The translations under genes and the position numbers were made by a program. Under the pieces are notes generated by a model. The model was not told the origin of the DNA, did no database searches, and was given only the letters and a program-made list of their open reading frames with translations. Below, one piece after another: positions 22,509 to 26,994 of a stretch of 64,000 bases of DNA. The stretch is from an uncultured Chloroflexia bacterium (lineage in GTDB: Bacteria; Chloroflexota; Limnocylindria; QHBO01), in assembly GCA_963814375.1 (NCBI GenBank), contig CAWFCQ010000002.1, positions 64,001-128,000 of the forward strand. Reading direction: 5' to 3'. Position 1 is the first letter of the stretch, and each line of letters begins with the position of its first letter.

Positions 22509-23627
22509 ATGTCCGATCTGCCCCTCACCGGGATCCGCGTCGCAGACCTGAGCCGGGTTTTGGCCGGGCCGTTCGCGACGATGCTGCTGGGCGATCTCGG
22601 CGCGGACGTCATCAAGGTCGAGCCGCCGGATGGTGACGAGACCCGGACATGGGGACCGCCGTGGTGGGGGGATCCGTCAGATCGGCGTAGCGCCTATTTC
22701 GCATCGGTCAATCGCAACAAGCGCAGCATCGTGCTCGACCTGCGCACCGATGAAGGTCGCGTCACCCTGGACCGCCTCCTGGCGCGCAGCGATCTGCTCG
22801 TCCACAACTACCGGCCGTCGACCGCCCTTCGCCTGGGCCTCGAGACCGATGCGCTCCGCGAGCGCCACCCTGACCTCGTTGTCGCCACCGTGGGTGGCTT
22901 TCCCGGCGCCGATGCCGAACGTCCCGCCTACGACCTGCTGGCGCAGGCGGTCTCCGGGCTGATGTCGGTGACCGGGGAGGCCGATGGTCCGCCGATGAAG
23001 GTCGGCGTGGCGCTGCTCGACCTCATCGCCGGGCTCGAGTGCGCCGTCGGGGCGCTCGCCGCGCTCGTCGGTCGCGGTCGCGGTTCGGGCGTCGCCACCG
23101 TGCAGGTGAACCTCGTCGAGGCAGGCGTCACCTCGCTGATCAACGTCCTCGGCAACTACCTCGCGACCGGCGTCGAGCCTGGGCGACATGGCAATGCGCA
23201 TCCGAACATCGCGCCGTATCAGGCGTTCTCGGCGCGCGACGGCCATCTCGTGATCGCCGTTGGTAACGACGCGCAGTTCGGTCGGCTCCTCGCCGCACTC
23301 GGGCTCGAGGATCCCGACGGGCGTTTCGCGACGAACGCGCTGCGGGTGGCCGCGCGCGAGGAGCTGTCGGCGTGGCTCGGCGGAGCGATCGGACGATGGG
23401 AGCGTGGTCAGCTCGTGGCCGCGCTGTCCGAGGCCGACGTGCCCGCGGGGCCGGTCAACAATGTGCCCGACGCACTTTCGGCTATGGGCGACGGATGGGT
23501 TAAGGAGCTCGACGGTGTGCGCGTGGCGCCCGGTCCGATGCGCATCGACGATCAGCTCACGCCGCTGCGACGACCATCCCCACGCCTGGGCGAGCACACC
23601 GACGAGGTGCTCGCGGAACTCGAATGA
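22509..23627 (+). CDS. CaiB/BaiF family III CoA transferase
   Basis: DLSRVLAGPF, GADVIKVEPP, NRNKRS, P.LGEHTDEVL. Confidence 0.95.
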   Translation: MSDLPLTGIRVADLSRVLAGPFATMLLGDLGADVIKVEPPDGDETRTWGPPWWGDPSDRRSAYFASVNRNKRSIVLDLRTDEGRVTLDRLLARSDLLVHNYRPSTALRLGLETDALRERHPDLVVATVGGFPGADAERPAYDLLAQAVSGLMSVTGEADGPPMKVGVALLDLIAGLECAVGALAALVGRGRGSGVATVQVNLVEAGVTSLINVLGNYLATGVEPGRHGNAHPNIAPYQAFSARDGHLVIAVGNDAQFGRLLAALGLEDPDGRFATNALRVAAREELSAWLGGAIGRWERGQLVAALSEADVPAGPVNNVPDALSAMGDGWVKELDGVRVAPGPMRIDDQLTPLRRPSPRLGEHTDEVLAELE

Positions 23628-23631
23628 GGAA

Positions 23632-23707
23632 TGGAGCGGGAGACGGGATTCGAACCCGCGACAGCCGGCTTGGAAGGCCGGTACTCTTCCAACTGAGTTA
23701 CTCCCGC
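23632..23707 (-). tRNA. tRNA-Gly(TCC)
   Basis: 76 nt GCGGGAG...CTCCCGC-T-CCA; anticodon stem CCGGC/GCCGG with loop CTTCCAA; GGTTCGAATCC T-arm; encoded CCA. Confidence 0.97.
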
Positions 23708-24324
23708 GCGGAGCGCGCTACCCACGTCCTCAGACGGTGGCAGTTCGCGCAGACGATATCGCATTTCGCGACCTCGCCCAAGATTGTCGCAGTGGACTGC
23801 CGGCCGACCATTCGCGTAACCGTATAGAGCTTGTCGGCAGGATCGCGGTGATCGAAGTCCATCGAGCATGCCTCGAAGCGTCCGCTGCAGTCTGCGCACG
23901 GCACGTCGCGAAGCCCGTCCAGGAGTCTGACCTGCTCTCTCCATTTCCGGAGCCTCAGGACCTGCGAAGGCGCCTTCGACGCATCCCTTCTCGGTCGCCT
24001 GCGCTCTGTGTCGCGAGTCCGGAGTCGGTGGCAGTTGACGCAGACGATGTCGCATTTCGCTACTTCCGCGAGAACCCGCTGCGTGGACATGAGCATCGCG
24101 CGGCCGGTCATCACGTTGAATGACTTCGTCGACGGATCTCGATGGTCGAAGTCCATCTGGTGAGGCTTGAGCTGCCTGCCGCAATCCGTGCACGGGACGC
24201 GTCGCAGGTCGCGGAGGAGCTCGACCATGCCCGCCTGCCGAACTCGCACGCGCTGGAGCTCGAGCTCGCGATTCCGCGCGTAGTACTCGACGTTGTATGG
24301 GCGTTGGCTGCGTCTGCGCGACAT
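23698..24324 (-). CDS. Tandem double-HNH endonuclease-like protein overlapping tRNA-Gly
   Basis: Two copies of CxxC...MDFDHRDP...KCDIVCxNCHRLRT, 97 aa apart; TAA stop lies inside the tRNA. Confidence 0.85.
   Translation of the reverse strand: MSRRRSQRPYNVEYYARNRELELQRVRVRQAGMVELLRDLRRVPCTDCGRQLKPHQMDFDHRDPSTKSFNVMTGRAMLMSTQRVLAEVAKCDIVCVNCHRLRTRDTERRRPRRDASKAPSQVLRLRKWREQVRLLDGLRDVPCADCSGRFEACSMDFDHRDPADKLYTVTRMVGRQSTATILGEVAKCDIVCANCHRLRTWVARSARE
23735..24060. repeat. Intragenic direct repeat (23735-23769 and 24026-24060)
   Basis: 35-nt copies with 3 mismatches, 291 bp apart, encoding the AKCDIVCxNCHR motif. Confidence 0.85.
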
Positions 24325-24329
24325 GCACG

Positions 24330-24348
24330 ATTATAGCACAGATGTTCT
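24330..24348 (-). promoter_or_regulatory. Extended -10 promoter (TGcTATAAT) overlapped by a LexA/SOS-box-like site (AGAAC-ATCT-GTGC)
   Basis: Perfect TATAAT 5 nt before the HNH ATG; GAAC-N4-GTTC with one mismatch. Confidence 0.65.
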
Positions 24349-24500
24349 ATTTACCCTCACAAAGGTGGCGCGGACGGCCATGCAATCCACCGAACTCCTC
24401 TTGACCGCACACCTAGACTTACGCCGCGGCCCGGCAACATGAGCCAGGCGGGAGGCTCCTGACCGGACCGTTCGGGGGGCACACCGAGGAGGATTGGCAC

Positions 24501-26016
24501 GTGACAGCTACTGCGCAGTCCCCGGACCCAGCGTCCCCGACCCTCGCGCGCAACGCCATCGGCCTTACCGAGGTCCTGTTCCAGTCGATCACGCACATGG
24601 CGCCGGCCGTCGCCACTGCGATCTCGATCGGCGCCGCGACCGCCTTCGCCGGCGGGATCACGCCGCTCGCCCTTGTGTTCGCCATGATCGCGGTGCTCTT
24701 CACCGCATATTCGATGAGCGAGCTGGCGCGTCACCTGCCCTCGGCGGGTGGGATGTACACCTATGTCGGGCGCGGGCTCGGCTCGTTCTTCGGCTGGCTG
24801 GTCGCCTGGTCGTTCGCCTTCGCCGAGCCCCTGATCATGCCGATTCTGCTCGGCGGCTTCGGCTTCTACGGGGCGATCTTCCTGTCGACCTACCTCGGCA
24901 TCGAGTTCGAGATGGCCTGGATCGTCCTGGCGCTCGTGTGTGCGGCGCTCGTGTGGTTCCTCAACTACCGCGGCATCGCGCTCTCGACTCGAACGGGAGT
25001 GGCCCTCGGCCTGATCGAGATCGGGATCTTCCTGCTCATCTCGACGCTCCTGATCGTCAACGCCGAGGAGAACACGCTGAGTGTCTTCGTCCCCGGGGAG
25101 GCGGGCCTGCTTCCGGCGTTCCAGGGGATGATCTTCTGCCTCCTGGCATTCATCGGCTTCGAGGCCGCCGCCCCGCTCGGCGAGGAGACGGAGGAACCGC
25201 GGCGCACGATCCCGAAGGCGGTGATCTACTCGGCGGTCCTCGTCGGCGTCTTCTATGTCTTCAACATGTACGCCGCGACGGTGTACTTCGGTCCCGACAA
25301 CATGACCGACTTCCTGGCTGCCAATGACGGCGACCCGTGGGGTGGGATGGCGACCGAGGTGATGGGCACGCTCGGCGGCCTGCTCGTGATCTTCGCGATC
25401 CTCAACAGCTGCATCGCGAACGCGAACTCGAGCGCAACGGCGGCCACGCGTTCACTGTTCGCGATGGGCCGGGCCACCCTGATCACGCGCTGGTTCGCAA
25501 CGATCCACCCGACATACAGGTCACCGGTGAACGCGGTCCACTTCCAGACGATTCTGGCGGTCATCGTCGCCATCGGGATCGGGCTCGCCCTCCCTGACGA
25601 CCCGATTCCGGGAGCACCCGGGCTCAACGTCTACATCTGGCTCGGGACCGCCGTCGGGCTGCTGTTTGCCGGGATGTACATCCTGGTGAATCTCGCCTGC
25701 ATCGGCTACTTCCTGCGCGAGGGCAGGAGCGAGTTCAACCCGCTGAAGCACGTGGTGGTGCCGATCCTCGGCGTGATCGCGATGATCCCGGCGGTATTGG
25801 CCGTGATCGGCGGCGTCACCATCCCGATCCTCGATGTCGAGCTCGCCCCGTACGAGAACTCGCTGCGCTGGACGGCACCGGTCGTCGGCGTGTGGGTCCT
25901 GCTCGGGATCGTCTTCTACTTCGTGCTCCGGGCCAGGAACCCGGAGGCGCTGGAGCGCGTGGACGATGTCTACGGCGGCGAGGATGCACCCGGTCGAGCA
26001 GCCCGCCAGCTCCTGA
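24501..26016 (+). CDS. APC-family amino acid/amine permease
   Basis: GAGGAGG RBS, PSAGGMYTY, FIGFEAAA..GEE; natural end probably EDAPVEQPASS* at 26016 (extra C near 25990; the ORF as given runs to 26087). Confidence 0.9.
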
Positions 26017-26052
26017 CCGATGCGGGCCGGCGGACGACCGCCGGCCCGTTCG

Positions 26053-26994
26053 CTACGCGAAGATCCCGAGGGGGCAGTGGGCGGTGACGACGAAGTTCGG
26101 CACGTCCACGATCTCGCTGATGCGCAGGTCCACCGCGACCGAGCACAGCAGGTAGGCCTGGATCGGGTCGAGGTCGTGCTCGCGACCCAGCCACTCGATC
26201 ATGCGCGAGATCGCGTCGCGCGAGGCGGTCATCAGGTCCGGCCCGATGCCGTCGGTGGCGTACCTCGCGCCGTTGCGCAGCGCGGCATGCGGGTCGGGTG
26301 CGGCGACGAACTCGGGCCCGGTGACGTGGAGGTCCTTGCGCACGCTGAGGCGGACGAGCGCGCGCATCGGCGTCTCGATGGCCGTGCCCGAGACCTCGCC
26401 GTCGCCCTGGGTTGCATGCCCATCGCCTATCGAGAAGCGAGCTCCCGCATGGAATACCGGCAGGAAGAGGCTCGAGCCGGCGACGAGGTGGCGGGTGTCC
26501 ATGTTGCCACCGTGCAGGTCGGGCGGAATGGTCGAGAGCGGCCCGGTCTCTGGCGCGACCCCGAGCTCTCCGCAGAAGGGCGCGAGGGGCAGCCGGATGC
26601 CCGGCCAGAACTCGACGCGGTCGGCGCCCGGGTCGAGGCGCGTGATCTTGAGCGAGGCGTTCGGGAAGTCGTCCGCCATGAGCCCGAAGCCGGGGATCGA
26701 GGCGGTCCAGCCCCAGTCCGCGGGCTCGAACTCGAGGAGGTCGACCTGGAGGGTGTCGCCCGGCTCGGCGCCGGCGACCTCGACCGGACCGGTGACCTGG
26801 TCGACGCTCGCGAAGTCGAGGGTCGCCAGCGCGTCGGTCGTCGAGTCCGCGGTGATCTGGCCGTTGGAGGCATCGAGGCAGTCGAACTCGACCACGTCGC
26901 CCGACCCGACTGTCGCCACCGGTTCGATGGCCGGATCCCAGGCCAGGTGGTTCTGATCGGCGCCGATGCGTGTCGCCGGACCAGCAGAGCCCAT
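26053..26994 (-). CDS. Acetamidase/formamidase family protein
   Basis: TGPVEVAGAEPGDTL, HGGNMD, GDGHATQGDGEVSGTAIE. Confidence 0.95.
   Translation of the reverse strand: MGSAGPATRIGADQNHLAWDPAIEPVATVGSGDVVEFDCLDASNGQITADSTTDALATLDFASVDQVTGPVEVAGAEPGDTLQVDLLEFEPADWGWTASIPGFGLMADDFPNASLKITRLDPGADRVEFWPGIRLPLAPFCGELGVAPETGPLSTIPPDLHGGNMDTRHLVAGSSLFLPVFHAGARFSIGDGHATQGDGEVSGTAIETPMRALVRLSVRKDLHVTGPEFVAAPDPHAALRNGARYATDGIGPDLMTASRDAISRMIEWLGREHDLDPIQAYLLCSVAVDLRISEIVDVPNFVVTAHCPLGIFA

Follow-up and report, generated by a model that had tools for sequence, protein, structure and literature searches.

A LexA-box nuclease gene that takes its stop codon from the adjoining tRNA-Gly gene in uncultured Limnocylindria

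Results

In a 64,000-nucleotide (nt) stretch of DNA from an uncultured Chloroflexia bacterium (hereafter the window; its genome is labeled G000 in our comparisons), the open reading frame (ORF) of a tandem HNH nuclease lacks a stop codon of its own and ends inside the adjoining transfer RNA (tRNA) gene, tRNA-Gly(UCC). A promoter with a LexA box, the nuclease ORF, and the tRNA-Gly(UCC) gene form a three-part cassette that is conserved in Limnocylindria. The tight ORF–tRNA junction is universal in the family; the place of the stop is not. We consider it probable that the borrowed stop of this cassette is a freely drifting by-product of compaction and not a selected switch. Judged from comparative sequence data, the nuclease gene appears to behave like a persistent selfish, homing-endonuclease-like insert at the 5′ edge of tRNA-Gly genes.

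The nuclease ORF ends within the tRNA gene

By ARAGORN the window has a sole tRNA gene, tRNA-Gly(tcc) (23632..23707, minus strand), and the Rfam RF00005 match (70 bits, E = 1.9e-14; full-length alignment, model positions 1-71) places its 5′ end at 23707. With its cloverleaf, tcc anticodon, and a CCA encoded in the gene (23634..23632), it has the features of a canonical bacterial tRNA. The nuclease ORF runs on the same strand from 24324 to 23698, stop included (208 amino acids, aa), and closes with the codons GCG CGG GAG TAA. Its last 10 nt (the overlap, 23707..23698) are tRNA nucleotides 1-10, GCGGGAGTAA, translated in the ORF frame as xxG CGG GAG TAA, with the TAA (23700..23698) corresponding to tRNA U8-A9-A10. 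No stop precedes 23700 in the ORF frame, and a scan of 23400-24700 found no terminator-like site in or just 3′ of the ORF. Sequence, ARAGORN, and Rfam agree on this anatomy, which the initial annotation had described exactly. Because the ORF has no stop of its own, a full-length nuclease transcript must include the 5′ part of the tRNA.

An open frame that enters a tRNA means little by itself in this genome because its G+C content is 70% and spurious frames reach other tRNAs. In the frame that makes tRNA +1 a third codon base, 27 of the genome's 62 ARAGORN calls have a stop at nucleotides 8-10. Other tRNAs are entered by spurious open frames, too, with lengths of 100-500 codons; one such frame (243 codons) lies antisense to a RecA-like gene, enters tRNA-Ala(cgc), and ends at nucleotides 8-10. 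We count the overlap described here as real because the ORF has nuclease homology and a conserved linkage to the tRNA.

The ORF encodes two HNH units in tandem

The database holds 2975 homologues of the nuclease at E ≤ 1e-3, mostly of 206-212 aa. Three curated 'HNH endonuclease' profiles of PHROG match the protein, each over two stretches (phrog_3106, 1.9e-47; phrog_2255, 6.2e-41; phrog_4234, 3.4e-19), placing it in the HNH (ββα-Me) superfamily. No Pfam family passed (NinE alone appeared, at 0.0034 and under its cut-off), NCBIfam gave sub-threshold noise only, PADLOC gave no defense-family match, and a sequence search of the PDB returned nothing but HypA noise at E = 0.18.

The protein, modeled by AlphaFold 2 (AF2) with a predicted local distance difference test (pLDDT) score of 91.8, consists of two complete HNH units, each with DH, N, H, and zinc cysteines. 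Repeat 1 (approximately residues 41-103; 24016..24204, minus strand) contains C45xxC48, D60-H61, C91, and C95xN97-C98-H99, and its ββα element comprises strands 57-61 and 91-95 and helix 96-109 in the AF2 model. Repeat 2 (approximately residues 139-200; 23725..23910, minus strand) contains C143xxC146, D158-H159, C188, and C192xN194-C195-H196. Across 30 aligned sequences, C48, D60, H61, C91, C95, N97, C98, and H99 of repeat 1 and C146, D158, H159, C188, C192, N194, C195, and H196 of repeat 2 are invariant, and C45 and C143 show conservation of at least 90%; the catalytic His/Asn/His residues and Cys4 zinc ligands of the superfamily are all present.

Structure comparison with BFVD matched both repeats to giant-virus HNH endonucleases of Medusavirus, Clandestinovirus, Marseillevirus, and Pithovirus (template modeling score ~0.7, E from 1e-12 to 1e-10, ~200 aligned columns) and one repeat to actinophage HNH proteins. 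Matches to solved structures were weak, with HNH enzymes in the top rows (Foldseek E ≥ 0.48; VIA Z ≤ 4.0; Gme HNH 4h9d and T4 endonuclease VII). The repeat with its helical N-terminal arm, the Cys4 zinc site, and the DH..N..H order are shared with phage and giant-virus HNH endonucleases, and the two-repeat architecture with the giant-virus proteins, although the latter are longer (277-545 aa). The nuclease is of the phage/giant-virus 'HNH endonuclease' kind and could cut both DNA strands as a monomer. Some deposited family members carry the misleading names 'formate-dependent nitrite reductase cytochrome c552 subunit' and 'L-lysine 2,3-aminomutase', probably owing to their CxxCH motifs.

The junction is constant and the stop position varies

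A scan of one genome per species identified 401 loci with a relative of the nuclease. We analyzed the best 80 of these 401, almost all from Chloroflexota or Candidatus Limnocylindria; all genomes compared are metagenome-assembled genomes (MAGs). The tRNA-Gly(tcc) gene lies directly 3′ on the same strand in 77/80 loci, and in the other three the contig ends within ~50 nt of the stop. The stop position was scored in the 76 loci that contain both features. It falls at tRNA nucleotides 8-10 in 38 (30 TAG, 8 TAA), at nucleotides 13-15 in 11, and beyond the whole tRNA in 12; in 2 it straddles +1 as TA/G. The remaining 13 stops are wholly upstream of +1: 7 abut it, 1 is 1 nt away, 4 are 12-13 nt away, and 1 belongs to a truncated gene. 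Altogether, the stop includes or follows tRNA +1 in 63/76 loci. The ORF enters the tRNA in all three frames: in 42 loci +1 is the third base of its codon, in 29 loci the first, and in 5 loci the second.

The same anatomy is visible in deposited proteins. Of the 120 nearest homologues in the database, 102 have the C-terminus '...RE', which is tRNA nucleotides 2-7 in translation, and about 10 carry a translated tRNA, 'AGVAQLVER...GSNPVSRS'; this sequence makes up the C-terminal extensions of P0043, P0049, P0109, and others.

On a maximum-likelihood tree of 34 proteins, from which unpublished genomes were left out, the stop state shifts about a dozen times by our reading, including between sister species: the stop is at position 8 in G000 and at 97 in G183, at -15 in G016 and at 8 in G049, and at 13 in G154 and at 100 in G055. 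Loci with upstream stops fall into at least three clades that outlasted speciation. The initial annotation had proposed that the gene can borrow a stop from many different tRNAs; instead, the partner is always tRNA-Gly, UCC in this family and CCC in the paralogues described below. It had also named homologues that stop before the tRNA as evidence against its proposal. Such homologues exist (13/76 loci, and 13/14 paralogues), and in the other 63/76 loci the ORF reaches +1.

A second nuclease family adjoins tRNA-Gly(CCC)

Weaker, multi-copy matches in host family f2 represent paralogues, of which 15 loci (within L168-L183; one locus from an unpublished genome was left out) were analyzed. These proteins of ~330 aa have a CxxC...CxxC finger ahead of each of their two HNH units. 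A tRNA-Gly(CCC) gene lies directly downstream in 14/15 loci and GAAC-N4-GTTC occurs near the ORF start in 12/15. In 13/14 loci the stop precedes the tRNA by 9-30 nt; the exception, L178, ends with 'RE' at tRNA nucleotides 8-10. The upstream stop is often the TAG of a -10-like hexamer, TAGAAT, 9-15 nt before the tRNA, where one triplet may serve as both stop and putative promoter element. The partner is thus always a tRNA-Gly, and an upstream stop does not conflict with how these genes work. A common unusual body (GCGGGTGTGTTGTAG...) occurs in some of the linked tRNAs of both the CCC and the UCC type.

The nuclease gene carries a LexA-type promoter

A LexA (SOS) box, GAACATCTGTGC, lies at 24336..24347 (minus strand) and differs by one mismatch (GTGC) from GAAC-N4-GTTC, which we take to be the LexA site of Gram-positive bacteria and Chloroflexi. 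It is followed directly by a -10 element, TATAAT (24335..24330), which is preceded by TGC as in an extended -10 and separated by 5 nt from the ATG at 24324 (the -10 and spacer span 24325..24335, minus strand). The layout recurs across loci: a box with at most one mismatch is at this fixed place in 64/73 assessable loci (38 perfect), its distance to the start codon is mostly 9-13 nt, and a -10 (TATAAT, TATACT, TAACTn) adjoins it downstream, leaving 3-7 nt to the start codon.

Single GAAC-N4-GTTC matches are uninformative, the genome containing 23 against 19.5 expected. The genome does encode lexA (PF01726 match, C6:161380-161559), whose promoter carries the motif itself in the layout TTGACA-AT-A-GAACATCCGTTC-TGCTAGCGT, with GAACATCCGTTC between TTGACA and TGCTAGCGT; together with the positional conservation of the box across orthologues, this is the pattern of a LexA regulon. 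No box was found within 260 nt upstream of recA. These features suggest that the nuclease promoter is silent under LexA until DNA is damaged and, because the distance from -10 to start codon is so short, that the nuclease messenger RNA (mRNA) is probably leaderless. A promoter scan of 23400-24700, which needs both hexamers and misses promoters that have only a -10, reported 0 promoters and 0 terminators. We found nothing on LexA control of such a nuclease gene in the literature covered, which excluded subscription journals.

Expression data came from four metatranscriptome runs of a single study. The region 23738-24326 is covered by RNA contigs that are 151-247 nt long and carry 1-6 differences, with strand and ends unreadable and DNA carry-over possible. 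One contig ends at ~24326-24329, a weak hint of a leaderless start, and no contig lies within 24330-24540. Likewise, no contig spans the tRNA junction by 31 nt to either side of it, a result that is uninformative on co-transcription.

A candidate tRNA promoter lies inside the ORF

The codons Asp189(GAT)-Ile190-Val191 in the last HNH motif contain a candidate -10, TATCGT (23753..23758, minus strand), that ends 45 nt upstream of tRNA +1. Asp189 is encoded by GAT in 62 of 69 ORFs and by GAC in 7; at the paralogous Asp92 of repeat 1 the counts are GAC 55 and GAT 13 of 68, and most other Asp sites favor GAC. Together with the fixed Ile and Val codons, GAT yields TATCGT or TATTGT 42-65 nt upstream of the tRNA, and a TAnnnT is present at the Asp189 site in 67/75 loci. 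Of the 8 loci that lack it, 4 carry TAGAAT, TAGACT, or TATCGT in the tail of the ORF, versus 9/67 of the others.

Same-genus loci without the nuclease (HNH-less; n = 24) mostly have a -10-like TAnnnT, often TGn-extended, 8-25 nt before +1, such as TGGTAGGCT, TGCTACGCT, or TATCGT. HNH-less G075, G192, G401, G234, and G372 have the last of these, as part of GTATCGT or ATATCGT, at 14-25 nt upstream of +1, and we read it as the putative -10 of these alleles. In filled loci (n = 78), no conserved A+T-rich element at a fixed distance was found within 30 nt of +1. We infer that a constitutive tRNA promoter is embedded in the last HNH motif. An internal promoter would be needed because the upstream one is predicted to be LexA-repressed, and as the insert stands between the tRNA and any promoter upstream, a substitute -10 would be kept inside the motif. 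The initial annotation had regarded an internal tRNA promoter as incompatible with its proposal; the constraint on TATCGT argues in part for such a promoter, which would not logically prevent ribonuclease P (RNase P) from cutting the SOS transcript.

The gene is patchily distributed and a probable insert

Any match to the nuclease was found in 112/401 genomes of the class and in 6/51 of the same genus (these tallies include genomes flagged as unpublished, e.g. G314), and the gene is missing from most same-genus genomes, near-complete ones of few contigs included. An empty site is preserved in the same-genus genome G054 (9 contigs), which has the same CoA-transferase, tRNA, and permease genes. 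Its contig C2 matches the window at 22518..23710 and 24400..26048 with 107 bp between, so that the 692-bp segment with ORF and promoter (23708..24399, minus strand) is swapped for an unrelated 107 bp. This replacement holds TGCTAGGCT 9 nt before +1, and homology resumes 3-4 nt before +1. Presence and absence at one locus between close relatives is what a homing gene would be expected to show, as are degenerate copies in a cycle of gain, decay, and loss: matches broken by internal stops or split into pieces occur in G016, G170, G288, G331, G163, G384, G187, G028, and G124, and loci L064, L065, and L068 are also affected by degeneration.

In the window, the CoA-transferase family III gene (22509..23627, plus strand; Pfam PF02515, 1.2e-105) is convergent with the tRNA and ends 4 nt from its 3′ end. 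The amino-acid permease gene (24501..26087, plus strand; PF13520, 9.2e-34) is divergent, and the 176-bp gap between it and the HNH start contains the SOS promoter.

Linked tRNAs form a distinct allele class

The tRNA of the window is the sole canonical tRNA-Gly(UCC) found in this 89%-complete genome; a second 'tcc' call at C8:404715, of 87 nt and with an odd 5′ end, is an unconfirmed candidate. It matches the standard allele of HNH-less relatives at 65/76 nt (86% identity), and that standard allele is 95-100% identical among HNH-less genomes of families f1 and f3. Within the genus (including G314, G296, and G123, which are flagged as unpublished), identity to the standard allele is at least 95% in 30/45 HNH-less genomes and in 0/7 HNH-bearing ones. 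None of 78 linked tRNAs equals the standard allele; they fall into 61 distinct sequences, and their median identity is 86%. The changes recur: G27:C43 is C:G in 59/78, C20 is changed in 78%, and T-loop positions 59-60 are changed in 76-79%. Stem changes are compensatory and the anticodon loop is kept. Three genomes, G057, G228, and G404, have a cassette-type tRNA and no nuclease, and may represent nuclease losses.

The linked tRNA thus seems to travel with the nuclease gene, and the pattern fits, at the level of sequence comparison, a nuclease that targets the standard tRNA-Gly gene and to which its own allele is immune. Separately, we observed that several genera share the standard UCC allele at 100% identity and that its identity across two families is 96-99%; this uniformity could stem from strong constraint or from cassettes being replaced horizontally.

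LexA-type boxes also precede rnpB and ssrA

The gene for RNase P RNA, rnpB, has a perfect GAAC-N4-GTTC at G000:C8:348475-348486, 8 nt upstream of its -10 (TACAAT). The box is at the same place in 23/28 same-genus loci (within L184-L213; the count omits one locus from an unpublished genome and one at a contig end), HNH-less genomes included. Another perfect copy, at G000:C3:183955-183966, overlaps the -35 (TTCACA; 17-nt spacer, TGGTAGAAT) of ssrA, the gene for transfer-messenger RNA (tmRNA). Among loci L214-L271, the ssrA box is present in 27/28 of the same genus and, at class level, perfect in 5/11 other f1 loci and 0/16 loci of f2-f5, and looks like a lineage-specific addition to the SOS regulon. 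A divergent 239-aa ORF beside ssrA in G000 matched no Pfam family. We rejected the idea that these boxes are tied to the nuclease, as HNH-less genomes have them and the ssrA box is patchy across the class. A LexA-type operator on rnpB was not found in the literature outside subscription journals, which our search did not cover. If real, the rnpB and ssrA boxes would bring stable RNAs into the SOS regulon.

Discussion

The cassette might operate as follows. LexA would shut the nuclease promoter and damage would open it; the leaderless message, devoid of a 3′ untranslated region or terminator, would run into the tRNA, which would itself be supplied constitutively by the internal promoter. A short C-terminal helix would pass through the tRNA leader and the ORF would end at the first in-frame stop met, in this genome tRNA U8-A9-A10. 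The genome encodes RNase P RNA (C8:348511-348834) and tmRNA (C3:183544-183906; tag GNDSYALAA). Given the established behavior of RNase P, cleavage at 23707/23708 would leave an mRNA that ends in codon 206 with neither a stop nor a protective hairpin; later ribosomes would stall on it and be rescued by tmRNA with its GNDSYALAA tag. Loss of the stop and the missing 3′ hairpin would keep nuclease output low.

The initial annotation had proposed that RNase P processing leaves a non-stop nuclease mRNA. For the window, the missing stop and terminator and the presence of rnpB and tmRNA genes agree with this, but as a family-wide program it is not supported, since stops upstream of the processing site occur in 13/76 loci and 13/14 paralogues. 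Stripping of the stop by RNase P is thus a plausible consequence of the anatomy, not a conserved design. A selected device, in which the stop was placed in the tRNA so that RNase P creates a non-stop mRNA, tmRNA tags and destroys most of the product, and stable nuclease comes only from ribosomes that beat RNase P, as with RNase III on arfA, seems unlikely to us. In its favor are the 63/76 loci in which the stop includes or follows +1, the 'RE' ends of 102/120 nearest homologues, the presence of RNase P RNA and tmRNA, and the fixed LexA-type boxes of rnpB and ssrA in the genus (23/28 and 27/28 loci); programmed non-stop control has a precedent (PMC3989581). Frames and stops nevertheless flip between sisters, the 13 loci with stops wholly upstream represent at least three clades that persisted through speciation, and 13/14 CCC-linked paralogues stop upstream, often at the TAG of a TAGAAT -10. 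The rnpB and ssrA boxes are likewise present in HNH-less genomes, and that of ssrA is absent from all 16 f2-f5 loci and found in 5/11 other f1 loci. Because lineages with upstream stops persist, we rate an unselected by-product above an arfA-like switch. An improbable, more elaborate variant is a self-timing SOS nuclease, in which the first ribosome would finish close behind the polymerase, after which the folded tRNA would be cut and later products would be SsrA-tagged. Were this true, the leading ribosome would keep the acceptor stem open until it departs. Because rnpB and ssrA carry LexA-type boxes, nuclease, cutter, and tagger would rise together: damage would raise the nuclease, the RNase P that disarms its message, and the tagger at once, with about one stable nuclease per transcript.

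Other explanations concern the gene itself. That the ORF is untranslated or truly ends earlier is hardly credible: long spurious frames do enter other tRNAs of this G+C-rich genome, but the ORF has thousands of homologues with conserved motifs, a confident fold, codon use that varies at most synonymous sites as in a coding gene, and no in-frame stop before 23700. A vertically inherited host nuclease for SOS repair or recombination, whose tRNA-Gly neighborhood is a frozen accident, is a rather unlikely alternative to a selfish insert. It would account for a tree congruent with host families, a conserved LexA box, and two catalytic motifs invariant in 30 aligned sequences; it would not account for the absence of the gene from most same-genus genomes, near-complete ones included, for broken copies, or for the distinct allele class of HNH-linked tRNAs, and a second paralogous family that also sits on tRNA-Gly is hard to explain as an accident. 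Strict pairing with tRNA-Gly isoacceptors, and linked tRNAs that deviate by compensatory stem changes while keeping the anticodon loop, might also suggest a toxin that acts on tRNA-Gly, as RNA or gene, with the linked variant tRNA as a resistant 'immunity' copy. We regard this as very unlikely: the HNH-bearing genome lacks a second, standard tRNA-Gly(UCC) to attack, no defense family matches, and, to our knowledge, HNH enzymes of this kind are DNases.

Several observations weigh against our interpretation of the cassette as a selfish insert with a drifting stop and an embedded tRNA promoter. The 34-protein tree follows host families, with 3 label changes (minimum 2) versus a shuffled mean of 12.7, so that on these 34 proteins the gene tree does not depart from the host tree as horizontal spread of a homing gene would require; descent looks mainly vertical or within-family, with many losses, on the evidence of this tree. 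Because the stop at nucleotides 8-10 is quite stable within the sub-clade of the closest 120 homologues (102/120 'RE'), there is room for selection on it, and since the loci are related, our counts overstate their independence. The promoter reading rests on one synonymous site and on motif recurrence in related sequences; no conserved -35 was found for the internal promoter, Leu182 codons are unbiased, and the simple promoter scan is silent at the internal site. Transcript ends are not readable from the metatranscriptome contigs, which cover the ORF and leave the junction unbridged. Finally, the tRNA-Gly(CCC) control varies within the genus (89-100% identity), so the divergence of linked tRNAs is not abnormal in itself; CCC of G000 itself reaches E ≤ 1e-22 in 43/151 family genomes only. 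This variable isoacceptor tempers the idea, which we had considered, that HNH-linked tRNAs evolve abnormally fast. The notable points are how uniform the standard UCC allele is and that two allele classes exist, not a rate.

Parts of this arrangement have counterparts elsewhere. In animal mitochondria, the upstream mRNA receives its 3′ end through tRNA excision, and its partial stop is made whole by polyadenylation. There, as here, a coding sequence abuts or overlaps a tRNA whose excision defines the mRNA 3′ end; in the cassette, however, processing would delete a complete stop. In E. coli secG-leuU, RNase P cuts between an mRNA and the tRNA that follows it, and the mRNA is left with no terminator hairpin, but the ORF has its own stop and a spacer. 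The HNH colicins E7 and E9 and the mycobacterial REP13E12 HNH genes are silenced by LexA and released by DNA damage. They share with the cassette an HNH nuclease under LexA; the nuclease described here has 208 aa, is fused to a tRNA locus, and has no export, immunity, or lysis partners.

A parallel to the presumed selfish insert is the free-standing homing endonuclease SegB, whose gene is lodged in the tRNA cluster of phage T4. Its recognition site includes a conserved sequence of tRNAs, the T-psi-C stem-loop, and it spreads with neighboring tRNA genes, relatives being without the gene at the same place (PMC2330249). Recognition of T-loop sequence by SegB may have a counterpart in the altered T-loop of our linked tRNAs. 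SegB is a GIY-YIG enzyme of a phage, whereas here a tandem HNH nuclease resides on a bacterial chromosome with a LexA box, a tRNA overlap, and a tree that mostly follows the host. A parallel for loss of the stop is E. coli arfA, in which RNase III cuts the stop off the mRNA at a hairpin and the SsrA-tagged product is kept low (PMC3989581, PMC10107115). As in arfA, an endonuclease would remove the stop in the cassette and give a scarce, SsrA-tagged product. The arfA pathway described there relies on RNase III at a hairpin and serves ribosome-rescue feedback; in the cassette RNase P would act at a tRNA, and absence of a stop upstream is no conserved feature. We found no description of an HNH–tRNA overlap in the literature, although preprint or subscription work may exist.

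If the anatomy holds, the cassette shows how a potentially dangerous nuclease gene can reside in a bacterial chromosome in compact and widespread form, with at least 401 species-level loci from one class of uncultured soil Chloroflexota. If the internal promoter is true, simple deletion of the nuclease gene would cost the cell an essential tRNA and so entrench a selfish gene; no description of such entrenchment via a tRNA promoter was found in the literature searched. The loci offer a natural bacterial test bed for the fate of an mRNA whose stop lies inside a tRNA, and for the question of whether tRNA-gene-specific homing nucleases occur outside phages. They also carry a warning for annotation: the '...RE' tails and the 'AGVAQLVER...GSNPVSRS' extensions are translated tRNA.

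Additional observations

Elsewhere in G000, a LexA box at C2:238180-238191 (L167) lies between a RecA-like gene (PF00154, 1.8e-23; 268 aa), which we read as imuA-like, and the divergent tRNA-Ala(cgc). It is ~20 nt upstream of TATACT, a -10-like hexamer of this tRNA, and may touch both divergent promoters. Two tRNA arrangements occur twice in the assembly and in opposite orientation: the cluster Leu-Cys-Gln-Gly-Phe-Val-Leu-Leu at C4:430-438 kb and C8:548-556 kb, and Ala-Ala with a RecA-like gene at C2:225-238 kb and C5:241-253 kb. The doubling points to a duplication of contig ends or to a bin that mixes two strains (contamination 4.5%).

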